Assembly (NCBI GenBank): GCA_963752285.1
Contig: CAVVXN010000003.1
Span: forward strand, 96,001 to 160,000
DNA from: an uncultured Planctomycetota bacterium
Lineage (GTDB): Bacteria; Planctomycetota; PLA2; JAEUHO01
Direction: 5' to 3'
Length of the DNA: 64,000 bases
This document shows positions 8,842 through 64,000 of the stretch, in pieces. Within the stretch, counting starts at the first letter, position 1; the number at the start of each line of letters is the position of its first letter. The position numbers and the translations under genes were made by a program. The notes below the pieces were generated by a model. That model was given only the letters and a program-made list of their open reading frames with translations, did no database searches and was not told the origin of the DNA.

Positions 8842-9201
8842 ATGGCGTCGAGCCTGTTCGCTTGGGAGATCGACCATCTGTCCTGGCCCTTCGTGCCGTA
8901 CCTCGGCCGGGAGGACGAAGAGGAGGAGCTGGACGAGGACGAGGAGGACGAAGACGACGTCGACGACGAGGAGGAAGAAGAGGACGACGAAGAGCTCGAG
9001 GAGGAAGAGGAAGAAGAAAAAGAAGAGGAAGAGGAAGAGGAAGAGGAGGAGGACGAGGAAGAAGAGGACGAGGAGCCCGACGACGACGAAGAAGAGGACC
9101 TCGAGGACCTCGAAGAGGAAGAAGAGGACGAGGACGACGACTTCGAGGACGACGACGACGACTGGGACGACGACGACGACGACGACGACTGGGACGACTG
9201 A
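8842..9201 (+). CDS. Small hyper-acidic (Asp/Glu-rich) protein of unknown function
   Basis: 23-aa aromatic/hydrophobic N-terminus followed by about 95 residues that are almost all D/E. Strong SD; fills the gap between nadE and rnd exactly. Confidence 0.75.
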   Translation: MASSLFAWEIDHLSWPFVPYLGREDEEEELDEDEEDEDDVDDEEEEEDDEELEEEEEEEKEEEEEEEEEEDEEEEDEEPDDDEEEDLEDLEEEEEDEDDDFEDDDDDWDDDDDDDDWDD

Positions 9202-9207
9202 CCCGCG

Positions 9208-10386
9208 TCAGCCCGGCGGAGCGAGGAGCGTCAGCCAGGTCTCGCCGTAGCGTTCGGCGCGCTTCGGCCCGACGTCGCGACAGAGGGCGAGGTCCTCGAC
9301 GCGCGACGGCACTTCGTTCACGAGCCAGCCGAGGGCCCGGTTGGGGAGCACGACGAGGTTCGGGACCTTGCGTCGGCCCGCCTCCTCGCGACGCCACGCG
9401 CGGAGGCGCTCTTCGCGTGCGCGGACCTGCTGGCGGCGCGCCTTCTCCTCGGGGCTCGGACGTTCGCGCTCCTCCGGCGCGGGCCCGCGTCCCTCGCGCA
9501 TGTCCTCGAGGCCGGCGCGGACCGCGTCGAGCACCTCCCGGCCGAACCGCCGCCGGTGACCGGGAGAGAGCGCGCGGAGGTCGTCGACCTTTCTCGGCGG
9601 CGGCCCCCCGTGCTGGGCGATCTCGACCATCGCGCGCGGCGGGATCACCTTGAAGGGAGGGCGGTCGAGGCGTGCGGCCTCCGCGTCGCGCCAGCACCAG
9701 AGGCGCGCGAGCACCGCGCGACCGCTCGCGTCGAGTCGGTTCGCCCCCTTGAGGCCGCGCCACCCCTCCGGGTCGAAGACGACGGGCGTGCCGCGGCGCT
9801 CCGCGAGGCGCTCGAACTCGATCTCCGCCTCCTCGCAGAGGTCCGCCTCCTCGAGGCGCGCACGGAGCCGCTCGTACAGGCCGGGGAGGTAGAGCGTGTC
9901 GTGATGAAGGTACTCGATCTGCTCCGGCGAGAGGGGCCGCCGGCCCCAATCGGCCGTCTGGAAGCGCTTGTCGAGCTCCACGCCGTACGCCTCGCGGACG
10001 AGGTCCGCGAGCCCGACCTTCGGCTCGCCCAGGATCGTGGCGGCGATCATGGTGTCGAATACGTGCCGGAACTCGACGCCGTGCTCGCGGGAGAGCAGGG
10101 CGATGTCGAAGTCGCCCCCGTGGAAGACGCACACGTTGTGGTCGCGGGTGGTCACCCCCGCCACGGGTTCGAGGCTTCGGACCGCGAACAGGTCCACGAT
10201 CGTGCTCTCCCCGTCCGCGGTGATCTGGAGGACGCACGCGCGTTCGCGGTACACGTAGAGCGAGTTCGCCTCCGTGTCGAGGGCGATCACCCGCGCGCGG
10301 GCGAGGCGATCACCGACCCGCGCGAGGTCCTCGTCCGTCTCGACCAGACGCGGCGGTGCTTCGGGAGGCTCCGGCAGGGGCGGCAC
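9208..10386 (-). CDS. rnd: Ribonuclease D family 3'-5' exonuclease with HRDC domains
   Basis: IALDTEANS, FHGGDFDI, FDTMIAA, QTADWGRRPLS..QIEY..HD, WRDAEAARLDRPPFKVI and a second HRDC at the C-terminus. GTG start chosen from a TATGCT hexamer 6 nt upstream. Confidence 0.9.
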   Translation of the reverse strand: MPPLPEPPEAPPRLVETDEDLARVGDRLARARVIALDTEANSLYVYRERACVLQITADGESTIVDLFAVRSLEPVAGVTTRDHNVCVFHGGDFDIALLSREHGVEFRHVFDTMIAATILGEPKVGLADLVREAYGVELDKRFQTADWGRRPLSPEQIEYLHHDTLYLPGLYERLRARLEEADLCEEAEIEFERLAERRGTPVVFDPEGWRGLKGANRLDASGRAVLARLWCWRDAEAARLDRPPFKVIPPRAMVEIAQHGGPPPRKVDDLRALSPGHRRRFGREVLDAVRAGLEDMREGRGPAPEERERPSPEEKARRQQVRAREERLRAWRREEAGRRKVPNLVVLPNRALGWLVNEVPSRVEDLALCRDVGPKRAERYGETWLTLLAPPG

Positions 10387-16885: not shown

Positions 16886-17054
16886 GCGCTCGCGCGGCGC
16901 GGCGCGTCCCTTTTCGGCCCCCCGGGGTCGTCCGATCGTAGAGTGCTCCGCCATCCGCCGGTACGAGTCCGGCGGAGCGTCGGGCCGCGTCGGCTCGGGG
17001 ACGGTACGGGAGGGTTCCGCCGCGTCGGTGGTCGTCGCGGCAGGAGGAGCGGGC

Positions 17055-18947
17055 ATGAGCTTCACCGTTCAGGACGCCGAGCGCCTGTACGGGATCGACG
17101 CCTGGGGACACGGCTACTTCCGCGTGAACCCGCAGGGGCACCTCTGCGTCCATCCCGACCGCGAGGAACGGGGCATCGACCTCCTCCACCTCGTGTCGCG
17201 CCTGAAGCGGCGCCGGGTCCGGTTCCCCGCGCTGCTGCGCTTCCCGCAGATCCTGCACGCGCGCGTGGAAGAGATCTTCGGGGCGTTCGAGCGAGCGATC
17301 GAGGAGTACGGCTACCCCCAGCCGTACCGCGGCGTCTACCCGATCAAGGTCAACCAGCAGCGCGACGTGATCGACGAGCTGACCCGCGCGGGACGCGGAC
17401 GCGGTCTCGGCCTGGAGGCGGGGAGCAAGGCCGAGCTGGCCATCGCGCTCTCCCAGCGCCTCGACCGGGACGCCCTGATCATCTGCAACGGTTACAAGGA
17501 CAAGCCGTACATCCGCCTCGCGCTCCGCGGCGTGGCGCTCGGGAAGCGGGTGTTCCTCATCGTGGAGAAGCCGCAGGAGGTCCCGCTCATCGCCGCCGTC
17601 GCCCGCGAGACGGGCATCTCTCCCCTGCTCGGGATGCGCATCCGGCTCCGGGCCCGCGGCTCGGGCAAGTGGGAGAAGTCGGGCGGGAGCGAGGCGAAGT
17701 TCGGGCTGAGCACGCAGGAGCTGCTCGACGCCGTCGCCCTGCTTCGGCGGCACGAGCTCATCGACGGTTTCCGTCTCCTCCACTTCCACGTCGGCAGTCA
17801 GATCCCCGAGATCAAGAAGATCAAGAACGCCGTGAAGGAGGGCGCGCGGATCTACGCGAAGCTCCGGGCCGACGGCTGCCCGATGGAGTTCCTGGACGTC
17901 GGTGGGGGTCTGGGCGTCGATTACGACGGGAGCGGCACGTCGTTCGAGGCCAGCATGAACTACACGGTCTCGGAGTACGCGCGCGACGTCGTCTACAACG
18001 TCCAGGCCGTCTGCGACGCCGAGGAGGTGCCGCCGCCCGTCCTGGTGAGCGAGTCCGGCCGGGCCCTCGTCGCGTACCACGCGATGGTGCTCATGGAGGT
18101 TCGCGGGCAGAACCTCAGCCTCGACGGCGAGGCGATCCTCCTGCCCGAGGACGTCCACGAGGGCGTGCGCGAGCTCCACGAGATCTACAAGGGTGTCACG
18201 AGGAAGAACCACCGCGAGTCGCTGCACGACGCCGAGGAGATGCGTGACGTCCTCCTCGGCCACTTCGACCTGGGGTACCTGTCGCTCCGGGACCGCGCGC
18301 TGACCGAGCGCCTGGTGCAGGCCATCGCGGTCCGCGCGCTGGCCTACGCGGACGGCGAGAAGTACGTGCCCGAGGAGATCGAGCTCCTCAAGAAGCGGCT
18401 GATCGCGAAGTACATCGCGAACTTCAGCGTCTTCCAGTCGATCCCCGACTCCTGGGCGCTCGACCAGCTCTTCCCCATCGTGCCCATCCACCGCCTCGGG
18501 GAGCGGCCGACGGTGCGCGCGACGCTCTGCGACGTGACCTGCGACTCGGACGGGGAGGTGGACCGATTCACCGACCTGAGGGACGTGAAGGACGCGCTCG
18601 AGCTGCACCGACTCCAGGAGGGGAAGCCGTACTACCTCGCCGTCCTGCTCGTGGGCGCGTACCAGGACGTGCTCGGCGACTACCACAACCTCTTCGGCCG
18701 CGCGGACGAGGCCATGGTGACGCTCGGCAAGGGCGGCGCACGCGTGAACCGCGTCATGCCCGGCGACGATTCCGACGACGTGCTGAAGCTCTTTCGGCAC
18801 GACCCCGAGGGGATGGTGTCCTCGATCCACGAGCAGGCGCGAACGGAGATCCGCGAACGCCGCCTCACCCGCGCCGAGGCGAACGAGATCCTCGCCGAGT
18901 ACCGCGAGGCCCTCGAAGGCTACACCTACCTCGACTTCTCCGAATAG
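17055..18947 (+). CDS. speA: Biosynthetic arginine decarboxylase
   Basis: YGIDAWG.GYF, YPIKVNQ (PLP Lys), GLEAGSKAEL, HFHVGSQI, LDVGGGLGVDYDG, NFSVFQSIPDSW, TCDSDG, GAYQDVLGDYHNLFG. Confidence 0.97.
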   Translation: MSFTVQDAERLYGIDAWGHGYFRVNPQGHLCVHPDREERGIDLLHLVSRLKRRRVRFPALLRFPQILHARVEEIFGAFERAIEEYGYPQPYRGVYPIKVNQQRDVIDELTRAGRGRGLGLEAGSKAELAIALSQRLDRDALIICNGYKDKPYIRLALRGVALGKRVFLIVEKPQEVPLIAAVARETGISPLLGMRIRLRARGSGKWEKSGGSEAKFGLSTQELLDAVALLRRHELIDGFRLLHFHVGSQIPEIKKIKNAVKEGARIYAKLRADGCPMEFLDVGGGLGVDYDGSGTSFEASMNYTVSEYARDVVYNVQAVCDAEEVPPPVLVSESGRALVAYHAMVLMEVRGQNLSLDGEAILLPEDVHEGVRELHEIYKGVTRKNHRESLHDAEEMRDVLLGHFDLGYLSLRDRALTERLVQAIAVRALAYADGEKYVPEEIELLKKRLIAKYIANFSVFQSIPDSWALDQLFPIVPIHRLGERPTVRATLCDVTCDSDGEVDRFTDLRDVKDALELHRLQEGKPYYLAVLLVGAYQDVLGDYHNLFGRADEAMVTLGKGGARVNRVMPGDDSDDVLKLFRHDPEGMVSSIHEQARTEIRERRLTRAEANEILAEYREALEGYTYLDFSE

Positions 18948-18951
18948 GCGC

Positions 18952-19053
18952 TCGGCGCTCTGAGAGGCCAGTTCGCGGCCCTTCCTCCTCCTTGCGTGCA
19001 TTCGCACGCGGCGTCGTCGTCATGGCCACTCCTTTGGCCTCTCAGAGCGCCGA
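18952..19053. repeat. Structured dispersed repeat ('leader'), copy 1 of 4
   Basis: Perfect 19-bp stem TCGGCGCTCTGAGAGGCCA / TGGCCTCTCAGAGCGCCGA enclosing the 64-nt core GTTCGCGGCCCTTCCTCCTCCTTGCGTGCATTCGCACGCGGCGTCGTCGTCATGGCCACTCCTT. Confidence 0.92.
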
Positions 19054-19077
19054 TCGCGTGCGGGCGTGTTGGCGTGC

Positions 19078-19545
19078 GGGCTCGCGGGCCCGCCTTCGGC
19101 GGGGCCGCGTCGCGGCGACCGCGGGGGGGCTCGCGGGGCCGCCTTTGGCGGCGCCGCATCGTGCGGTGTGGCGGTGGGCTCGCGGGCCCGCCTTTGGCGG
19201 GGCCGCGTCGCGGCGACCGCGGGGGGGCTCGCGGGGCCGCCTTTGGCGGCGCCGCATCGTGCGGTGTGGCGGTGGGCTCGCGGGCCCGCCTTTGGCGGGG
19301 CCGCGTCGCGGCGACCGCGGGGGGGCTCGCGGGGCCGCCTTTGGCGGCGCCGCATCGTGCGGTGTGGCGGTGGGCTCGCGGGGCCGCCTTTGGCGGGGCC
19401 GCGTCGCGGCGACCGCGGGGGGGCTCGCGGGGCCGCCTTTGGCGGCGCCGCATCGTGCGGTGTGGCGGTGGGCTCGCGGGCCCGCCTTTGGCGGGGCCGC
19501 GTCGCGGGGTACCGGGACGGGCTCGCGGCTTCGCCGCATGCGCCC
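19078..19545. repeat. Tandem hairpin array 1: alternating A/B units, exact 49-nt period (REP/BIME-like)
   Basis: GGGCTCGCGG recurs every 49 nt (CTC at 19081, 19130, ..., 19522): 9 full units plus 1 reduced. Each full unit has a CCGCC-TTY-GGCGG hairpin. Confidence 0.92.
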
Positions 19546-19572
19546 TTCGTCACCGGTCCGGACTAGGGGGAG

Positions 19573-19828
19573 TAGGGAGCCGGAGCAATTTGTCCGGATC
19601 CGTCCAGAACACCCTTGCCGTCCACTCGCGTCGTTCGCGACTGATTCGGACAAATTGCTCGGGCTCCGTACGTCCCAAGCCGCGTCCGCTGGCCGAGGAC
19701 CGCCGCGCCGCGTCCGCTGGCCGACTACCGCTGCGCCGCGTTCGGGCCGTTGGAGCCCGGGTCTGCCGCCCTGCGAGCGCCGGTCCGCCCGGCGGATTCG
19801 GACGAATTGCTCTGGCTCCGTACGTCCC
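19573..19828. repeat. Three copies of a ~28-34 nt motif (one inverted pair plus one direct copy); MITE/IS-end-like
   Basis: 19573-19600 TAGGGAGCCGGAGCAATTTGTCCGGATC is the inverted complement (25/28) of 19643-19670. 19643-19676 recurs at 19795-19828 with 2 mismatches. Confidence 0.7.
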
Positions 19829-19839
19829 CGTACGTCCAG

Positions 19840-21093
19840 TCAGGGGGCCTTGTCGGGGGGGAACGTCAGGAGGTGGCCCAGCTTCTCCGCCTTGGCGCGG
19901 AGGTAGCGCTCGTTCTGGCTCGTGGCCGGCATCTCGATCGGGATCCGCTCCACGATGTCGAGGCCGTAGCCCTTGAGCGCCCGGTACTTGACCGGGTTGT
20001 TCGTGAGGAGACGGAGCTGCCGCACGCCGAGGTCGTAGAGGATCTGCGCGCCGACGCCGTAGTCGCGGTGGTCGGGCTTGAACCCGAGGTGCTCGTTCGC
20101 CTCGACCGTGTCCAGCCCGTCCTGGTCCTGGAGGTGGTACGCGCGGATCTTGTTGACCAGCCCGATCCCCCGGCCCTCCTGCCGCATGTAGAGGATCACC
20201 CCGCGCCCGGCGACCGCGATCCGCCGCTGGGCCGCCGCGAGCTGCTGCCCGCAGTCGCACCGGAGCGAGCCGAACACGTCCCCCGTGAGGCACTCGCTGT
20301 GCGCGCGCACGAGGAGTGGTTCCTCGATCGGCGGGTTGGGCTGGCCTTCCGTGGGCAGCGGGATCCCGAGGGTCAGCGCCATGTGCGGCTCGGGGTCCGT
20401 CCGGGCCGAGTAGACGAGGACGTCGAACTCGCCGTGGCGCGTCGGCAGGTGGGCCGTCGTCTCGAGGTGGATCAGGCGCTCGTGGCGCCGCCGCCACGCG
20501 ATGACGTCCCGGACGCTGCAGAGCTTCAGGTCGTGCTCCGTGGCGAAGCGCTCGAGGTCGGGGAGCCGGGCCATCGTTCCGTCGGGGAGCATCAGCTCGC
20601 TGATCACCCCGATCGGCTTCAGCCCCGCGAGGCGGCACAAGTCGATCGAGCCCTCGGTCTGCCCCGCGCGGCGGAGCACGCCGTCGGGGTGTCCACGGAT
20701 CGGGTAGATGTGGCCGGGCCGCGCGAGGTCCTCGGGCGAACACTCGTCCCGCGCGATCGTCTCGATCGTGGTCGCGCGATCGGCCGCGCTGACGCCCGTC
20801 GTGACGCCCGCGCGCGCCTCCACCGAGACCGTGAACTGCGTGCCGAAGCGGGACGAGTTGACGGAAGACTCGACCTGGAGGGGGAGCTCCAGCGCGTCGG
20901 CCTTCTCACGGGGGAGCGTCACGCAGACGATGCCGCTCGTGTGGCGGAGCATGAACGCGATCTTCTGCGGCGTGACCTTCTCCGCCGCGAGCACGAGATC
21001 GCCCTCGTTCTCGCGGTCCGGGTCGTCCACGAGGATGACCATCCGACCCGATCGGAGCTCGTCCAGGATCTCGGGGATGGGGGCGAACGGCAT
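19840..21093 (-). CDS. ribBA: Bifunctional DHBP synthase / GTP cyclohydrolase II
   Basis: DDPDRENEGDL, TTGVSAADR, RPGHIYP, RAGQTEGSIDL, VRAHSECLTGDVFGSLRCDCG, RQEGRGIGL, LLTNNP. Confidence 0.97.
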   Translation of the reverse strand: MPFAPIPEILDELRSGRMVILVDDPDRENEGDLVLAAEKVTPQKIAFMLRHTSGIVCVTLPREKADALELPLQVESSVNSSRFGTQFTVSVEARAGVTTGVSAADRATTIETIARDECSPEDLARPGHIYPIRGHPDGVLRRAGQTEGSIDLCRLAGLKPIGVISELMLPDGTMARLPDLERFATEHDLKLCSVRDVIAWRRRHERLIHLETTAHLPTRHGEFDVLVYSARTDPEPHMALTLGIPLPTEGQPNPPIEEPLLVRAHSECLTGDVFGSLRCDCGQQLAAAQRRIAVAGRGVILYMRQEGRGIGLVNKIRAYHLQDQDGLDTVEANEHLGFKPDHRDYGVGAQILYDLGVRQLRLLTNNPVKYRALKGYGLDIVERIPIEMPATSQNERYLRAKAEKLGHLLTFPPDKAP

Positions 21094-28962: not shown

Positions 28963-29257
28963 GGGCGCCGGTCCCGGTGCCACCCCGCGGCGCGCACGGG
29001 GACGAGCGCGCGCCCGCGCGCCGGGCGCCCTCCTCGTCACGAGTCGAGAGGGTTCGCGCTCTCGTCCTCGGGGGTTCGGGGGCACGCACGGTCCCGTTCC
29101 CTCCCGCCGTTCGTGGCTACGACGGGTGCCTGCCGACGTGCGGACCGCCGCGACGACCCGCGGGGGCCGCCCCGCGACGCCGCTCGACCCGGGACGGGAC
29201 GTTCACGCGAACATCCGCCCCGGTGACGCCGGCGCCGGGTCGCGCTATCCTCGCGGT

Positions 29258-29506
29258 ATGTCCGAGCGCCCGAAGCGACGTACCGAGGTCACCAGCGGTC
29301 TCTTGGGGATCGGTTTCGACGGAGCCGACGGCCACCGACGCGTGACCACGGGCGACAACTTCCTTCTCCTCGGCGGCAGCGAGGAGACGCACGAGCGCAT
29401 GCAGGACGTCGTCATTCGGATCAACCAGAAGCTGAAGCGGAAGGGGAAGACGCTTCGTGAGCTTTCGGAGTCCGAATTCGAGGACATCGCCAAAGACAGC
29501 CTCTAA
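29258..29506 (+). CDS. Small hypothetical protein (recalled as a conserved PVC-type family)
   Basis: LLGIGFDGADGHRRVTTGDNFLLLGGSEETHERMQD. TATCCT hexamer 6 nt before the ATG. Confidence 0.8.
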   Translation: MSERPKRRTEVTSGLLGIGFDGADGHRRVTTGDNFLLLGGSEETHERMQDVVIRINQKLKRKGKTLRELSESEFEDIAKDSL

Positions 29507-29509
29507 CCC

Positions 29510-29617
29510 CCAGCGGCGCGCTGAGGGCCCCGTTCGCGGCCCTTCCTCCTCCTTGCGTGCATTCGCACGCGGCGTCGTCGTCATGGCCACTCCTTGGGGC
29601 CCTCAGCGCGCCGCTGG
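29510..29617. repeat. Structured dispersed repeat ('leader'), copy 2 of 4
   Basis: Same 64-nt core. Perfect 22-bp stem CCAGCGGCGCGCTGAGGGCCCC / GGGGCCCTCAGCGCGCCGCTGG with compensatory changes relative to copy 1. Confidence 0.92.
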
Positions 29618-29633
29618 CGTGGCGGCGGGTGCT

Positions 29634-30098
29634 GGCGGGCTCGCGGGGCCGCCTTTGGCGGCGCCGCATCGCGGAGCGGCGGGTGGCGGGCGGGCTCGCG
29701 GGGCCGCCTTTGGCGGCGCCGCATCGCGGAGCGGCGGGTGGCGGGCGGGCTCGCGGGGCCGCCTTCGGCGGCGCCGCATCGCGGAGCGGCGGGTGGCGTG
29801 GCGGGCTCGCGGGGCCGCCTTTGGCGGCGCCGCATCGCGCGGCGTGGGGGCGGGCTCGCGGGGCCGCCTTCGGCGGCGCCGCATCGCGGGGGCGGGGCTG
29901 GCGGGCTCGCGGGGCCGCCTTTGGCGGCGCCGCATCGCGGAGCGGCGGGTGGCGGGCGGGCTCGCGGGGCCGCCTTTGGCGGCGCCGCATCGCGGAGCGG
30001 CGGGTGCTGGCGGGCTCGCGGGGCCGCCTTCGGCGGCGCCGCATCGCGCGGCGTGGCGGGCGGGCTCGCGGGGCCGCCTTTGGCGGCGCCGCATCGCG
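29634..30098. repeat. Tandem hairpin array 2: nine 40-nt units with short G-rich variable linkers
   Basis: GGCGGGCTCGCGGGGCCGCCTTYGGCGGCGCCGCATCGCG at 29634, 29689, 29744, 29800, 29849, 29900, 29955, 30009, 30059. Linkers 9-16 nt. Confidence 0.92.
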
Positions 30099-30205
30099 GC
30101 GGTGGTGGCGCCGCGTCGCGGGCGGTGGTGGCGGGTGTGAAAATGCGCGACCCGGGAAACGTGCGGCCTAGGATGCCGCCGGGGACTCTACGCGAGGGCT
30201 GGATC

Positions 30206-56520: not shown

Positions 56521-56723
56521 GACCCGGATCCTCCCGCCCGGGGGGGACATCGGTCCGGGCGCGCCGCGGCGGGCTCGCACGGAGAACGGCCCCTCGATCG
56601 CCACGCAGGTCGCGAGCGTGGTGGTAGCCTGACCGCGACAAATGGCCGGGGAGGGCCTCCCGTGGGGCTTCGAGGACCGCGAGGGGTCCCGGCGCCGCGT
56701 CCCCACGCACGAGGGAACGTCGT

Positions 56724-57419
56724 ATGACCGAACGCCCGAAGATCGCCGTCATCGAAGACGACGCGCACGTGCGCGATCTGCTCTCGGTGGTCCTCTCCGA
56801 CGCGGGGATGGAGCCCCGAGGCGCCGGGGACGGGACCGTGGGGCTCGATCTCGTCCGGGGCTGGGAGCCGGACCTGGTCCTGCTCGACTACGGTCTCCCG
56901 AAGGGACCGACCGGCCTCGACGTCTGCCGAGAGCTACGCCGCCAGCCGGAGACGGCGAACCTGCCGATCATCGTGCTGACCGCGCAGCTGAACGACCAGC
57001 TCGAGGAGTCGTTCTTCGAGGCGGGCGCGGACGACTACATCCGGAAGCCGAACTTCAAGGCGAGCCTCCTGATCTCTCGGATCACCGCGGTGCTGCGCCG
57101 CACGCGTCCCGCAGGCGCGGACGTGGTGCAGACCGAGCACCTCGTGATCCACCCGGGGCGGCGCGAGGCGCTCGTGGACGGCGAGCCCGTGAACCTGACG
57201 CCCACGGAGTTCGACATCCTCTACAAGCTCGCCACGAACCGCGACCGCGCGCTGTCGCGCCGCGAGCTCCTGGACCGCGGCGGCGCCGACGGCGAGGGCG
57301 TGGACCGCACCGTGGACGTCCACGTGCTCTCCATCCGCAGGAAGCTCGGCAAGCACGCCTGGCTCGTGTCCACCGTCTGGGGCGTGGGCTATCGGCTGGG
57401 GACCGCGCCGGGCGTCTGA
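56724..57419 (+). CDS. OmpR/PhoB-family two-component response regulator (no adjacent kinase)
   Basis: IEDD, LLDYGLP (phospho-Asp), GADDYIRKP, LTPTEFDIL, RTVDVHV..IRRKL, TVWGVGY. Confidence 0.95.
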   Translation: MTERPKIAVIEDDAHVRDLLSVVLSDAGMEPRGAGDGTVGLDLVRGWEPDLVLLDYGLPKGPTGLDVCRELRRQPETANLPIIVLTAQLNDQLEESFFEAGADDYIRKPNFKASLLISRITAVLRRTRPAGADVVQTEHLVIHPGRREALVDGEPVNLTPTEFDILYKLATNRDRALSRRELLDRGGADGEGVDRTVDVHVLSIRRKLGKHAWLVSTVWGVGYRLGTAPGV

Positions 57420-58096: not shown

Positions 58097-59521
58097 ATGA
58101 AGCGCATCGCACTGGTGGCGGTTGCGGTCGGGCTGATGGCCTGGGCCGCGGCCCCTGCGCTGGCCGACAGCCAGCCGACGACCGCCGACATCGACACGGC
58201 GGTTTCGAACTATCTCGCGTCGGCCCAGAGCGACGCGAGCCTCGTCGGTGGCACGGGCAGCGCCGGGTACGACTCCGGTTTCTGGATCCGTGGCGGGGAC
58301 TTCACGCTCAGGATCAACCTGACGCTGCAGGCCCGCTACGAGATCTTCAAGTTCGACAAGGACGAGCAGCTCGGCTTCCGCGGCACGACCGCGAATCAGC
58401 GGATCGGGGCGGGCCTGCCCGGCGGCGGCGACCTGTCGGGCTTCTCACTGCCGCGTTCGATCCTGAAGTTCAGCGGCACGGCTCCGTGCAACGTCCGCTA
58501 CTACGTCGAGATGGACTTCGGCCATCACGGCGGCTCGCTCTACGGGCTGCCGTGGACGTACGCGGGCTACCTCGCGCAGTTCAACGGCGCGATGTGGCTG
58601 AACAACTGGTACCAGTACTCGAACACGCGTGAGGCGTGGATCGAGTGGGGGATGAGCGACCTGCTCAACGTCCGGATGGGTCAGATCATGATCCCGAGCA
58701 CCCGTCAGCTGATGACGGCTCCGGAGCTGCAGCAGTTCGTGGACATCTCGATGGCGTCGTCTCTGACGGGCCAGCTGCAGCCGGGCTACACGGATCGCAA
58801 CCGCGACATGGGCGTGATGGTCCATGGGACGTTCGGCTGCTCGAACGACTGGCAGTACATGCTGGCGGTCACGAACGGGGACGGCGGGGACTCGATCCGC
58901 AACGTGCTCAACCCCCTGACCAACGACAACTTCATGTACAGCGGTCGTCTGAACTGGGCGTTCCTGGAGCCGATCGGCTACACGGAAGGCGCGACCCGGT
59001 TCAAGAGCTGCACGTGGTACGGCGAGGCCGGCGTGTGGGGCAGCTACTACGCGCAGCGCGTGGACCACCCGCACACGAAGATCGGCAACCGCCTGATGTT
59101 CGGCGGCGACGTGGCGTTGGGCTACGGCGGCTTCTCGTTCACGGGAGCCTTCACGTACTACAAGTTCAACAAGAGCGACGTGGGGATCCTGGACGAGGAC
59201 TGGTACCTGATCCTGGTGCAGGCGGGGTACCTCTTCCCGGACACGCCGTGGGAGATCGCGGCTCGTTGGAGCTACTACAACCGCAAGATCGCGGCGGCGG
59301 GCGGCGACCTCAAGCCGACCACGAGCGAGATCTCGGGTGCGATCAACTACTACCTGAACGGCCACGGCAACAAGCTGACGCTGGACTTCACGTACATCTC
59401 CGCGAAGGCCGACGGCGCGGCGGGTGGCGGCTGGTTCGACGTGTACCCGGGCGTGCCGCTCGGTTACGACTCGGATGCCAACCACTACCTCATCCGCTTC
59501 CAGTGGCAGCTCGCTCTCTGA
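58097..59521 (+). CDS. Outer-membrane porin, phosphate-selective porin O/P-like (copy 1)
   Basis: Signal peptide, AGYDSGFWI, LQARY, amphipathic aromatic beta strands, RMGQ, RDMGV, INYYLNGHGNKLTLD, C-terminal RFQWQLAL. Confidence 0.85.
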   Translation: MKRIALVAVAVGLMAWAAAPALADSQPTTADIDTAVSNYLASAQSDASLVGGTGSAGYDSGFWIRGGDFTLRINLTLQARYEIFKFDKDEQLGFRGTTANQRIGAGLPGGGDLSGFSLPRSILKFSGTAPCNVRYYVEMDFGHHGGSLYGLPWTYAGYLAQFNGAMWLNNWYQYSNTREAWIEWGMSDLLNVRMGQIMIPSTRQLMTAPELQQFVDISMASSLTGQLQPGYTDRNRDMGVMVHGTFGCSNDWQYMLAVTNGDGGDSIRNVLNPLTNDNFMYSGRLNWAFLEPIGYTEGATRFKSCTWYGEAGVWGSYYAQRVDHPHTKIGNRLMFGGDVALGYGGFSFTGAFTYYKFNKSDVGILDEDWYLILVQAGYLFPDTPWEIAARWSYYNRKIAAAGGDLKPTTSEISGAINYYLNGHGNKLTLDFTYISAKADGAAGGGWFDVYPGVPLGYDSDANHYLIRFQWQLAL

Positions 59522-59544
59522 CCACCCCCCACGGCCGCGAACGT

Positions 59545-59646
59545 TCGGCGCTCTGAGAGGCCAGTTCGCGGCCCTTCCTCCTCCTTGCGTGCATTCGCAC
59601 GCGGCGTCGTCGTCATGGCCACTCCTTTGGCCTCTCAGAACGCCGA
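59545..59646. repeat. Structured dispersed repeat ('leader'), copy 3 of 4
   Basis: Same core and stem as copy 1, with one C/A apposition in the stem (G-U on the minus strand). Confidence 0.92.
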
Positions 59647-59668
59647 CCGCATGCGCACGCGGGGGGGC

Positions 59669-60150
59669 GGGCTCGCGGCGTCGGCCTTCGGCCTCGCCGC
59701 ATTGCCCTTGTGAGGCCCCAGCCCCGGGGAGGGAGCTGGGGCCTCTTCTCGTTTCGGGGGGGCTCGCGGCTTCGGCCTTCGGCCTTGCCGCCTCGCCCTT
59801 CGTAGGGGCGGGCTCGCGGCGTCGGCCTTTGGCCTCGCCGCATTGCCCTTGTGAGGCCCCAGCCCCGGGGAGGGAGCTGGGGCCTCTTCTCGTTTCGGGG
59901 GGGCTCGCGGCTTCGGCCTTCGGCCTTGCCGCCTCGCCCTTCGGAGGTGCGGGCTCGCGGCGTCGGCCTTTGGCCTCGCCGCATTGCCCTCGAGGCTCCG
60001 GCCCCGGGGAGGGAGCTGGGGCCTCTTCTCGTTTCGGGGGGGCTCGCGGCTTCGGCCTTCGGCCTTGCCGCCTCGCCCCTCGGAGGTGCGGGCTCGCGGC
60101 TTCGGCCTTCGGCCTTGCCGCATGGCCCTTCGGGGGGGTGGGCTCGCGGC
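59669..60150. repeat. Tandem hairpin array 3: three-part XYZ unit, ~141-nt period, three copies plus extra units
   Basis: X = GGGCTCGCGGCGTCGGCCTTYGGCCTCGCCGCATTGCCC, Y = GAGGCCCCAGCCCCGGGGAGGGAGCTGGGGCCTC, Z = GGGCTCGCGGCTTCGGCCTTCGGCCTTGCCGCCTCGCCC. X starts at 59669, 59810, 59951. Confidence 0.92.
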
Positions 60151-60271
60151 TTGGGGGTTTGGGTTTCGGGTTTCGGGGTGGGCGCGGGGCGTGGGCGTGC
60201 GGGGGGTGGGGGATCGGGAGGGGGCGTTGGGGTAGGACTCTTGGTCCCTCGGGGCCTTATGGGGTTGGCGG

Positions 60272-60289
60272 GTGACGGCGTTGTGACCG
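60272..60289. promoter_or_regulatory. Pho-box-like 11-bp-period direct repeat upstream of porin 2
   Basis: GTGACGG-cgtt-GTGACCG; the reverse strand reads CGGTCAC-N4-CCGTCAC. Confidence 0.45.
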
Positions 60290-60434
60290 GCTTCGGGCCC
60301 ACTGTGGGGGTGGCACGCTCTCTCGGGGGCCCTGCAGGAGGCCCGCGCGCGTGTCTTGCGCATCGCAGGCGAACGGCGGGACCGGCCAGGCCGGTACGGA
60401 GCCGCCGGTGATCGACAAGGGAGGTTGGCAAATC

Positions 60435-61874
60435 ATGAAGCGAATCGCATTGGCGGTCGTCGTCGCCGGTCTGCTCGCGTGGGTCGCGACGCCGGCGCGC
60501 GCGAGCGACCAGCCGACGACCGCCGACATCGACACGGCGGTTTCGAACTATCTCGCGTCGGCCCAGAGCGACGCGAGCCTCGTCGGTGGCACGGGCAGCG
60601 CCGGGTACGACTCCGGTTTCTGGATCCGTGGCGGGGACTTCACGCTCAGGATCAACCTGACGCTGCAGGCCCGCTACGAGATCTTCAAGTTCGACAAGGA
60701 CGAGCAGCTCGGCTTCCGCGCCCCCCGGACGGTCGTGACGACGAACCAGCAGGTCGGTCCCGCGGGCCTGCCCGGCGGCGGCGACCTGTCGGGCTTCTCA
60801 CTGCCGCGTTCGATCCTGAAGTTCAGCGGCACGGCTCCGTGCAACGTCCGCTACTACGTCGAGATGGACTTCGGCCATCACGGCGGCTCGCTCTACGGGC
60901 TGCCGTGGACGTACGCGGGCTACCTCGCGCAGTTCAACGGCGCGATGTGGCTGAACAACTGGTACCAGTACTCGAACACGCGTGAGGCGTGGATCGAGTG
61001 GGGGATGAGCGACCTGCTCAACGTCCGGATGGGTCAGATCATGATCCCGAGCACCCGTCAGCTGATGACGGCTCCGGAGCTGCAGCAGTTCGTGGACATC
61101 TCGATGGCGTCGTCTCTGACGGGCCAGCTGCAGCCGGGCTACACGGATCGCAACCGCGACATGGGCGTGATGGTCCATGGGACGTTCGGCTGCGCGAACG
61201 ACTGGCAGTACATGCTGGCGGTCACGAACGGGGACGGCGGGGACTCGATCCGCAACGTGCTCAACCCCCTGACCAACGACAACTTCATGTACAGCGGTCG
61301 TCTGAACTGGGCGTTCCTGGAGCCGATCGGCTACACGGAAGGCGCGACCCGGTTCAAGAGCTGCACGTGGTACGGCGAGGCCGGCGTGTGGGGCAGCTAC
61401 TACGCGCAGCGCGTGGACCACCCGCACACGAAGATCGGCAACCGCCTGATGTTCGGCGGCGACGTGGCGTTGGGCTACGGCGGCTTCTCGTTCACGGGAG
61501 CCTTCACGTACTACAAGTTCAACAAGAGCGACGTGGGGATCCTGGACGAGGACTGGTACCTGATCCTGGTGCAGGCGGGGTACCTCTTCCCGGACACGCC
61601 GTGGGAGATCGCGGCTCGTTGGAGCTACTACAACCGCAAGATCGCGGCGGCGGGCGGCGACCTCAAGCCGACCACGAGCGAGATCTCGGGTGCGATCAAC
61701 TACTACCTGAACGGCCACGGCAACAAGCTGACGCTGGACTTCACGTACATCTCCGCGAAGGCCGACGGCGCGGCGGGTGGCGGCTGGTTCGACGTGTACC
61801 CGGGCGTGCCGCTCGGTTACGACTCCGACGCCAACCACTACCTAATCCGCTTCCAGTGGCAGTTGGCGCTCTGA
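60435..61874 (+). CDS. Outer-membrane porin, phosphate-selective porin O/P-like (copy 2)
   Basis: Near-identical to 58097..59521 apart from the signal peptide, one loop and one S/A change. GGGAGG SD. Confidence 0.85.
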   Translation: MKRIALAVVVAGLLAWVATPARASDQPTTADIDTAVSNYLASAQSDASLVGGTGSAGYDSGFWIRGGDFTLRINLTLQARYEIFKFDKDEQLGFRAPRTVVTTNQQVGPAGLPGGGDLSGFSLPRSILKFSGTAPCNVRYYVEMDFGHHGGSLYGLPWTYAGYLAQFNGAMWLNNWYQYSNTREAWIEWGMSDLLNVRMGQIMIPSTRQLMTAPELQQFVDISMASSLTGQLQPGYTDRNRDMGVMVHGTFGCANDWQYMLAVTNGDGGDSIRNVLNPLTNDNFMYSGRLNWAFLEPIGYTEGATRFKSCTWYGEAGVWGSYYAQRVDHPHTKIGNRLMFGGDVALGYGGFSFTGAFTYYKFNKSDVGILDEDWYLILVQAGYLFPDTPWEIAARWSYYNRKIAAAGGDLKPTTSEISGAINYYLNGHGNKLTLDFTYISAKADGAAGGGWFDVYPGVPLGYDSDANHYLIRFQWQLAL

Positions 61875-61965
61875 GAGGCCAGTTCGCGGCCCTTCCTCCT
61901 CCTTGCGTGCGTTCGCACGCGGCGTCGTCGTCATGGCCACTCCTTTGGCCTCTCAGACCGCCAAC
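61862..61965. repeat. Structured dispersed repeat ('leader'), copy 4 of 4; overlaps the porin 2 stop codon
   Basis: GTTGGCGCTCTGAGAGGCCA / TGGCCTCTCAGACCGCCAAC stem; core with one A>G change in the inner hairpin loop. Confidence 0.92.
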
Positions 61966-61985
61966 CGCATGCGCACGCGGGGGGG

Positions 61986-62327
61986 GGGCTCGCGGCTTCG
62001 GCCTTCGGCCTCGCCGCATTGCCCTCGAGGCCCCGGCCCCCGGGAGGGAGCTGGGGCCTCTCGTTTCGGCGGGCTCGCGGCTTCGGCCTTCGGCCTCGCC
62101 GCATTGCCCTTGAGGCCCCGGCCCCCGGGAGGGAGCTGGGGCCTCTCGTTTCGGCGGGCTCGCGGCTTCGGCCTTCGGCCTCGCCGCATTGCCCTCGAGG
62201 CCCCGGCCCCCGGGAGGGAGCTGGGGCCTCTCGTTTCGGCGGGCTCGCGGCTTCGGCCTTCGGCCTCGCCGCATTGCCCTTGAGGCCCCAGCCCCGGGGA
62301 GGGAGCTGGGGCCTCGTCTCGTTTCGG
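61986..62327. repeat. Tandem hairpin array 4: two-part XY unit, 85-nt period, four copies
   Basis: CTC of GGGCTCGCGG at 61989, 62074, 62159, 62244. Each unit is an X-type hairpin plus a Y-type hairpin plus TCGTTTCGG. Confidence 0.92.
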
Positions 62328-62422
62328 GGGGGCGGCTGGGGCGTTTGGGCTGGCGGCGGTGCGTTGGGGGGGGGCGTGAAGGGGGGGGATTGCGCTCGCG
62401 GCGGGAATCGTTAGGCTACGGC

Positions 62423-62542
62423 CGTCCGGCGTGAAGTCGGACGACCCGTCGGGTCCGATCCTGCCCTCATGGGGACCCAGCGGGCATTGCCCTGCCTCCT
62501 ACCCGCCCCGGCGTCGAGTTCGAACGCCGGGGCATCTTCTTT
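62423..62542 (+). ncRNA. Candidate ~120-nt sRNA or terminated leader upstream of uvrA
   Basis: TTGCGC-16-TAGGCT promoter-like motif (62390-62417), 5' hairpin CGTCCGG/TCGGACG, a CCTCCT motif, terminal terminator. Confidence 0.35.
62505..62542 (+). terminator. Intrinsic terminator
   Basis: GCCCCGGCGT...ACGCCGGGGC stem followed by ATCTTCTTT. Confidence 0.65.
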
Positions 62543-62593
62543 GGGGGCGGCGGGGGACCCGCGCGGTCCACCTTCGAATACCATGACGCGCCC

Positions 62594-64000
<1,407 letters not shown>

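Follow-up and report, generated by a model that had tools for sequence, protein, structure and literature searches.

Bacterial intergenic DNA is known to harbour repeats of modular build. BOX elements combine a boxA module, a tandem array of boxB modules and a boxC module, with larger boxE and boxF end modules in the forms found in S. suis; the same account describes them as folding tightly if transcribed, and as 3' adducts they are thought to impede 3'-to-5' exonucleases (PMC3049150). Repetitive extragenic palindromes (REP) carry a conserved GTAG or CGTC tetranucleotide tag at one end and are described in clusters reiterated in tandem, head to tail, together with flanking DNA (PMC3733652), and successive REPs in bacterial interspersed mosaic elements (BIMEs) are described as alternating in orientation (PMC2817692). 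In E. coli, REP325, a series of 12 hairpins in a 3' untranslated region (3' UTR), is presented as both a terminator and an mRNA stabiliser, attenuating read-through and giving a ladder of hairpin-ended transcripts (bioRxiv 10.64898/2026.03.23.713779). At the level of small RNAs, the CcsR RNAs bear an anti-Shine-Dalgarno motif (CCUCCUCCC) and are reported to be processed by RNase E from the 3' UTR of a small-protein gene (PMC8034643). Here we describe a cassette, composed of a structured leader followed by an array of small hairpins, which occurs four times in a stretch of 64 kb (hereafter the window; G+C 73.7%) from the genome of an uncultured Planctomycetota bacterium (contig CAVVXN010000003.1, positions 96,001 to 160,000). 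A first-pass annotation of the window had put the cassette forward as an undescribed system, a label that is too strong, since the BOX architecture (PMC3049150) and tandem REP clusters (PMC3733652) are already on record in the accounts cited. All counts of linkage, copy number and orientation given below refer to the window.

Structure and constraint of the leader module

Each cassette begins with a leader of about 110 nt, in all four cases on the + strand, whose inverted arms form a closing stem of 19–23 bp around a 64-nt core. Leader 1 (18948..19057; arms 18948-18970/19035-19057, core 18971-19034) directly follows the stop codon of speA and has a predicted minimum free energy (MFE) of -71.3 kcal/mol (z -6.2). 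Leader 2 (29509..29618) has 22-bp arms (29510-29531/29596-29617) that are 100% complementary around a core at 29532-29595 (MFE -82 kcal/mol, z -5.6), leader 3 (59541..59650) has its well-paired arms at 59545-59563/59628-59646 and its core at 59564-59627 (MFE -64.5 kcal/mol, z -4.3), and leader 4 (61859..61968) has arms at 61859-61881/61946-61968 and a core at 61882-61945 (MFE -64.9 kcal/mol, z -3.1). As detected, three pairs of arms measured 23 nt (96% complementary), 22 nt (100%) and 23 nt (91%), and the fourth 39 nt at 79% with flanks included; the spacing between the arms was exactly 64 nt in four out of four leaders. The repeat search recovered the same module as a family (D5) of four 124-nt copies at 18954, 29515, 59547 and 61865, with 83–100% identity to the reference, and a 30-mer taken from the core had four matches in the window at up to three mismatches, compared with 0.00 expected.

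The core sequence was identical in leaders 1, 2 and 3 and differed at a single position in leader 4, so that the one substitution over four copies noted in the first-pass annotation, like its long closing stem, was borne out. In contrast with this core (0–1 differences over 64 positions), the arms of leader 2 differed from those of the other copies at 14–18 of 46 positions. Comparison of leaders 1 and 2 gave no difference in the 64 core positions and 14 in the 46 arm positions (hypergeometric P = 1.3e-6 if the changes are independent; P ~2e-3 when the seven changed pairs are counted as single events). The variation in the arms preserved their pairing: 8 of the 24 pairs of the closing stem were changed on both sides (seven in leader 2 and one in leader 4), while one-sided changes were absent (0). 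When the pairing was assessed on the four-sequence alignment, 95.5% of its 156 cells were paired, versus 34–46% with a slid partner, and none of 500 shuffles reached the observed value. Covariation in the stem, together with invariance of the core, thus indicates a constraint on pairing in the former and on sequence in the latter. As far as sequence comparison goes, such a pattern typifies a structured nucleic acid that has a sequence-specific partner, and it makes the leader a candidate structured RNA; arms that vary more than the core are the opposite of what would be predicted for a terminal inverted repeat bound by a transposase.

A common fold was predicted for all four leaders (MFE -64.5 to -82 kcal/mol, z -3.1 to -6.2 on the + strand), consisting of the closing stem, three short inner helices and, in addition, a pyrimidine tract of 13–14 nt that stays unpaired. 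This tract, CCUUCCUCCUCCUU, was single-stranded in all four MFE structures; its mean probability of being unpaired was 0.77–0.81 in three of the four copies and 0.43 in leader 3 when 60 nt of downstream sequence were included. The motif CCUCCUCC occurs once per leader inside the tract, that is, in a multiloop strand and not in a hairpin loop. The 15 pairs of the inner helices were invariant in all copies, and the covariation evidence is therefore limited to the closing stem. With regard to the strand, two leaders were also folded on the - strand and proved as stable or more so, which means that folding energy does not reveal the strand; two predicted pairs are G-U in all copies when read on the + strand and would turn into A-C mismatches when read on the other. 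The leader is C-rich, with a GC skew of -0.15.

Hairpin arrays, their linkage to the leader and the surrounding genes

Shortly after each leader, at a distance of 17–24 nt in all cassettes and in agreement with the first-pass annotation, starts an array of hairpin units headed by GGGCTCGCGG. This head was found 33 times in the window, compared with 2.58 expected; 31 of the 33 occurrences lie in the arrays, all on the + strand and head to tail (10, 9, 8 and 4 units), and the two isolated ones, at 10005 (- strand) and 22427 (+ strand), correspond to chance level. The unit is an imperfect G+C-rich palindrome of about 26 nt, flanked by a head, GGGCTC, that is invariant and by a CCGC-AT(C/T)G-like tail. 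Its stem of 10–11 bp with an internal mismatch (folds of about -23 to -33 kcal/mol) closes a loop that reads, on the + strand, TTCG in 13 and TTTG in 16 of the 31 units. Two types of unit were distinguished, one in arrays 1 and 2 and the other in arrays 3 and 4. The variation in the unit stems is too small for a strand comparison of G-U against A-C.

Array 1 (19078..19546, + strand) has ten units with a period of 49 nt, in two alternating variants and with a truncated last unit; Tandem Repeats Finder, from which all periods were taken, assigned it a higher-order period of 98 nt (4.7 copies, 97% matches). Array 2 (29637..30133, + strand) has nine units with a period of 49–56 nt, a degenerate tail and a higher-order period of 211 nt (2.2 copies, 94% matches). 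In array 3 (59669..60160, + strand), which has eight units, each higher-order period of 141 nt (3.4 copies, 95% matches) consists of two hairpin units and one terminator-like hairpin, and in array 4 (61986..62325, + strand; period 85 nt, 3.9 copies, 97% matches) each of the four units is followed by a terminator-like hairpin. Higher-order periods with 94–97% matches indicate recent local duplication of multi-unit blocks, consistently with the local amplification proposed in the first-pass annotation, and the arrays behind the two porin duplicates described below already differ in their organisation (141 nt and 85 nt). The arrays are G-rich on the + strand (GC skew +0.11 to +0.23, compared with 0.007 for the window). 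G-rich tails with long G runs were also seen after arrays 3 and 4 (60150-60240 and 62326-62390); these tails, or the arrays, may have G-quadruplex or R-loop potential.

The second hairpin of arrays 3 and 4 is present in seven copies (e.g. 59712-59745 and 59853-59886), on the + strand only, and is predicted to be an intrinsic terminator on the usual criterion of a G+C-rich stem followed by a T-rich tail (fold -36.7 kcal/mol). A simple scan for a stem with a T-rich tail flagged four of the seven copies, all on the + strand; over 59300-62700 it returned five sites, compared with 2.1 expected, the fifth lying inside the second porin gene. The loop of this hairpin (59712-59745 and its six further copies) holds GGAGGGAG, which, judged by eye, is complementary to part of the leader pyrimidine tract over eight pairs, one of them G-U; a kissing interaction between leader and array through this loop is conceivable.

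Leader and array were completely linked. A covariance model built from the four leaders and run over the whole window with filters off found only these leaders on the + strand (120.8–132.4 bits), the same four on the - strand at 38.6–51.1 bits, and 26 other rows at 19.7 bits or less. The unit model, run in the same manner with rows kept to E<=1, returned 53 rows: 29 at 50.8 bits or more, all in the arrays and on the + strand, one truncated terminal unit at 22 bits, and 23 noise rows at 19.3 bits or less. All four leaders had an array and all four arrays a leader, with no orphan of either kind, which upholds for the window the claim that neither module occurs alone; together with the repeat search and the core 30-mer, the two models established the cassette as a real and polar unit. 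We also rejected the idea that the leader is simply the opening unit of the array, its hairpin enlarged: homology between the leader tail and the array spacer was significant in cassette 2 only, where the post-leader sequence aligned with the inter-unit spacer at a score of 38 (shuffle maximum 28), and remained at chance level in cassettes 1, 3 and 4.

The cassettes lie immediately behind genes on the same strand. Cassette 1 follows speA, encoding arginine decarboxylase (17028..18947, + strand; stop 18945-18947), and faces the convergent ribBA, which ends at 19840 on the - strand. Cassette 2 follows a small open reading frame (ORF) downstream of polA (29126..29506, + strand; stop 29504-29506) that has no family match and whose third-position G+C content (0.83) favours the + frame; next comes, from about 30206 on the + strand, the gene for 3-hydroxybutyryl-CoA dehydrogenase. 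Cassette 3 is preceded by porin 1 (58097..59521, + strand; stop 59519-59521), which has weak Porin_O_P and ExtI-like matches, and cassette 4 by porin 2 (60435..61874, + strand; stop 61872-61874), with uvrA following from 62594 (+ strand). The distance from the stop codon to the leader arm is 0 nt in cassette 1, 3 nt in cassette 2 and about 23 nt in cassette 3, and in cassette 4 the porin 2 stop is located within the 5' arm of the leader; the proximity to stop codons noted earlier was thus confirmed. Because the cassettes sit right behind stop codons and point the same way as the gene upstream, they are most likely transcribed as its 3' UTR.

The two porins are 93% identical (463 of 499 residues), and over some 970 nt ahead of the 3' end their DNA differs at one position. 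Cassettes 3 and 4 both lie in a tandem duplication of about 2.3 kb and therefore derive from one event: the fourfold occurrence claimed in the first-pass annotation stands as a count of copies and is reduced to three as a count of independent loci. Leaders 3 and 4 (59541-59650 and 61859-61968) differ at four positions in about 105 nt, including one compensating change of a C-G to a T-A pair; set against the single coding difference between the porin duplicates, this suggests either that the leader changes faster or that gene conversion by further copies has acted on it. A stretch of 35 nt present in the porin 1 copy (59510-59544; segments compared 59473-59545 and 61826-61874) is missing from that of porin 2, and as a consequence of this deletion the last four codons and the stop of porin 2 come from the 5' arm of the leader. 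Both porins nevertheless share their final residues, which come after a beta-signal-like ...FQW, and this C-terminal extension may itself stem from an old leader junction. A gene for an OmpR-type response regulator (56628-57416) lies immediately upstream of the duplicated porin pair.

The remainder of the window is ordinary housekeeping DNA. Translations of its ORFs were scanned against Pfam and NCBIfam in partly overlapping sets of 12, 25 and 23, covering part of the ORFs, and none of those scanned matched a transposase, reverse transcriptase, Y1/HUH or cas family, as the first-pass annotation had stated for the window. Between speA and ribBA, immediately after array 1, lies an unrelated long inverted repeat (19567-19676) with 44-nt arms, 82% complementary and 22 nt apart, one arm stretch of which is lower in G+C; its RNA fold has -76.3 kcal/mol (z -6.8), and a third, partial copy of the arm occurs at 19799-19813 on the - strand. 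The same intergenic region holds a 28-nt tandem repeat (19679-19741; 2.2 copies, 91% matches). Elsewhere, a long imperfect triplet repeat, GAC/GAG-rich and with periods of 9, 15 and 30, occupies 8910-9200, within the 5' part of a - strand ORF that matches NAD+ synthase.

Candidate functions and rival explanations

Our preferred explanation, which we consider about evenly poised between right and wrong, is that the cassettes are a lineage-specific family of composite interspersed repeats akin to BOX and BIME, acting as a hairpin barrier and leaky terminator in 3' UTRs. The cassette would be co-transcribed with the upstream gene, and its very stable hairpins in series would form roadblocks to 3'-to-5' exonucleases as well as leaky terminators, the long stem of the leader being the last and strongest barrier, adjoining the coding region. 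In the porin cassettes the terminator-like hairpins would reinforce the barrier and terminator effect, and the arrays would lengthen or shorten locally by slippage or unequal recombination. Both the barrier or terminator effect and the mode by which copies spread are what we infer by analogy with described repeats. There are reports that terminating ribosomes stall at REPs located at most about 15 nt from a stop codon, and the distance of 0–3 nt between stop and leader at two of the loci would fit such stalling. If transcribed, the cassettes would offer a compact, modular way to act on 3'-end stability and read-through in a lineage of very high G+C content, from which nothing comparable is known; if they are merely a selfish repeat, they add one more lineage-specific family, of modest interest.

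We also searched for the element outside the window. Comparison of the whole window with Rfam at the gathering score gave tRNA only, and at E<=10 the four cassettes gave only unrelated families, at about 13.8–22 bits, with no cuckoo-type family among them; the Rfam comparison suggested in the first-pass annotation thus produced no match for the cassettes at threshold. The best family by E-value was BjrC68, a small RNA of Bradyrhizobiaceae (19 bits, E about 0.1; gathering score 39), whose sub-threshold matches at 59680-59754 and 59821-59895 each cover one hairpin unit and one terminator-like hairpin; this resemblance is probably a generic hairpin-plus-terminator likeness. Leader 1 had no blastn match among plasmids, and a full-text search of the literature for sequence strings of the element gave only unrelated primers or constructs. 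The two loci matched by an exact 20-mer of the core among species genomes (L001 and L002; see below) were rejected as ordinary ribosome-binding regions on the other strand without a match to the leader model.

At the protein level, an ORF over leader 3 and array 3 (59424-60275, + strand) is represented by a called protein of 266 aa (P0003) from a contig of 508,178 bp, apparently the window's own. Its single frame had no relative among 1.84 billion representatives, a weak negative, and a repeat protein retrieved with the same ORF (P0004) was dismissed as a chance match. The - strand frame of the leader retrieved a protein of 54 aa (P0005), present in two public sources and encoded on a 2,347,332-bp contig of another record. 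P0005 begins with 15 residues that are the same as in the leader frame, and what follows resembles the arm of leader 2; the HMMER E-value was 0.8 because the match is short, and an exact N-terminal match of 15 residues is not plausible by chance. We therefore take P0005 to mark a putative leader copy in another genome, with one core substitution and a different arm, as judged from the protein match. The cassettes are open in several frames, and P0003 and P0005 are almost certainly spurious proteins. Besides yielding false protein predictions of this sort, the cassettes are likely to be places where assembly errors concentrate, as well as deletions such as that of 35 nt at porin 2.

Several findings weigh against the barrier and terminator reading. 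Transcription of the cassettes is deduced from their position only and, with three independent loci, neither the shared strand nor the match in direction with the gene upstream is significant alone. The simple scan found no terminator-like site in cassette 1 and none in cassette 2. Pairing within the units is without covariation support (one doubly changed pair, a value matched by 462 of 500 shuffles). The units lack GTAG, a conserved CGTC and an alternating orientation, and so are not canonical REP/BIME; no 3' trailer is shared among the cassettes, and complementarity between leader and trailer did not exceed that of shuffles, which is not BOX-like in that respect. With regard to distribution, a 20-mer from the core had only two matches, both attributable to chance, in 185,579 species genomes, a collection evidently without the source genome; and the P0003 frame, whole or restricted to its leader part, found only the window's own ORF among 5.8 billion proteins, in a search confined to one frame and to limited lengths. 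Moreover, a pure barrier role leaves unexplained the invariance of the 64-nt core alongside a freely varying stem.

Two rival readings address that last point. In one of them the leader is a regulatory RNA: it could be cut from the 3' UTR and its CCUUCCUCCUCCUU tract could pair with Shine-Dalgarno-like purine tracts, either of other mRNAs in trans or, in cis, where arrays 3 and 4 carry GGAGGGAG in the loops of their terminator hairpins, while the array served as insulator and terminator; we regard this as possible though rather unlikely. An invariant core within a covarying stem is the pattern expected of a functional RNA, the C/U tract is mostly unpaired in three of the four copies and single-stranded in every MFE structure, two G-U pairs are fixed on the + strand, on which 13 of 31 unit loops read TTCG, and a stem of 19–23 bp has the length that cleavage by RNase III would need; the CCUCCUCCC motif of CcsR, as described in PMC8034643, offers a precedent. 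Yet no Rfam family, cuckoo-type models included, was matched at threshold, the tract is part of a multiloop strand, not of a hairpin loop, and falls to 0.43 unpaired in leader 3 with 60 nt downstream, the invariant inner helices provide no covariation evidence, the Pfam and NCBIfam scans found no adjacent DUF1127 gene, and TTTG in 16 of 31 loops argues against strong selection for a stable tetraloop. The leader might instead be a Correia/ERIC-like miniature inverted-repeat element, or the recognition end of a two-component non-autonomous element; it would be mobilised in trans by an enzyme with its gene elsewhere, would insert at hairpin arrays or beside them, and would owe its identical core to recent spread. 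Inverted arms of 19–23 bp, a length of about 110 nt, several intergenic copies and a core identical at three unlinked loci would agree with this, as would the putative copy on the contig behind P0005, the homology of the post-leader sequence to the array spacer in cassette 2 (38 against a shuffle maximum of 28) and the constant first position of the leader (about 1 in 720 for random landing among 10, 9 and 8 units); Correia elements are described as combining inverted repeats and a conserved core with IHF binding and RNase III cleavage (PMC2649163). The arms are, however, the least conserved part and carry compensating changes, where a transposase-bound terminal inverted repeat predicts the opposite, and flanking direct repeats within +/-6 nt of the arm ends do not exceed 3–4 nt, which is chance level at this G+C. 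Spacer homology in the other three cassettes is likewise at chance level, the units have neither GTAG nor a conserved CGTC tag, and the ORFs scanned contained no transposase, Y1/HUH, reverse transcriptase or cas family. We consider mobilisation of this kind unlikely, and nothing was found to show that the leader is a recognition or initiation site for a trans-acting transposase, as the first-pass annotation had suggested. A target-site duplication is likewise missing from the leader flanks, and the arms are less conserved than the core.

A bolder possibility is that the core, enclosed by a stem that keeps its pairing and is free in sequence, is specifically recognised, either as RNA or as single-stranded DNA, by a trans-acting factor dedicated to it, and that hairpin units are added beside it in one direction; the leader would then be a true initiation site for polar growth of the array, resembling the leader-proximal growth of CRISPR without its spacers. 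Alternatively, the cassettes might represent a new class of multicopy 3'-UTR riboregulator; we view either as a long shot. Two further explanations are far less credible. A small protein encoded on the - strand of the leader is suggested by an AAGGAG motif 5 nt before an ATG, which are common to all four copies together with the first 22–23 codons of the frame, and in P0005 an ORF of this sort was annotated by gene calling in another record. The frames, however, continue for 30, 43, 52 and 155 codons into unrelated antisense of the upstream genes with no conserved stop or C-terminus, synonymous variation among copies is absent, gene calling of the window's own contig did not include these ORFs, and the peptide is neither hydrophobic nor toxin-like; a coding leader is therefore very improbable. 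The same holds for an assembly artefact or chance low-complexity G+C-rich sequence, which we would hardly credit: tandem arrays with 94–97% similar higher-order repeats are prone to collapse or expansion during assembly, an error that could alter unit counts and could not create cassettes, and the four leaders stand in unique flanks with an exact arm spacing of 64 nt (0 expected), followed by 31 unit heads in arrays compared with 2.58 expected.

Comparison with described repeat systems

Set against sequence families of bacterial DNA and RNA, the CRISPR array was rejected as a match, since the sequences between the hairpins are themselves repeated, no cas gene was found among the ORFs scanned and no CRISPR repeat family scored above threshold. 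Like the CcsR or cuckoo RNAs (Rfam ar14 group; as described in PMC8034643), the leader is multicopy, lies downstream of a gene, probably in its 3' UTR, and exposes a C/U-rich, anti-Shine-Dalgarno-like tract with CCUCCUCC; unlike them, it gives no covariance-model match, holds the tract in a multiloop and not in two hairpin loops, has no DUF1127 neighbour and is closed by a long stem. It shares with Correia (CREE) and ERIC elements, in the accounts of PMC2649163 and PMC3049150, a length of about 110 nt, terminal inverted repeats (here 91–100% complementary) and a conserved core, as well as a location in intergenic DNA that is probably transcribed, here judged by position, and a long duplex that could be an RNase III substrate. 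It departs from them in the lack of a target-site duplication, in arms that vary around an invariant core and in its constant coupling to a hairpin array.

The array units resemble REP/BIME in being imperfect G+C-rich palindromes of about 26–35 nt with an internal mismatch, clustered downstream of genes that are arranged in tandem or convergently. The likeness does not extend to the tag or to the orientation: GTAG/CTAC is found in 0 of the 31 units and CGTC in 9, the invariant end being GGGCTC, and in place of the alternation of BIMEs all 31 heads and all 29 strong model matches are direct and on the + strand. Two further differences are the unique 110-nt module that precedes each cluster and, by comparison with RAYT-associated REPs, the lack of a RAYT/Y1 gene among the window ORFs scanned.

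The closest likeness in architecture is to BOX, which was compared by description and not by sequence. As in the BOX account (PMC3049150), a unique structured module is combined with a variable tandem array of a small module (here 4–10 units), and the composite is intergenic, is predicted to fold tightly as RNA, gives rise to annotated ORFs and expands locally. The cassettes differ from BOX in that there is no 3' closing module to pair with the leader, which closes on itself, in array units that are palindromic and G+C-rich in their own right and share a conserved head, and in their host, which has 73.7% G+C and porins and is not a streptococcus. The element fits none of the families tested and is, in its build and in its presumed working, like the known composite intergenic repeats, while the pattern of constraint on its leader is the part that could prove new.

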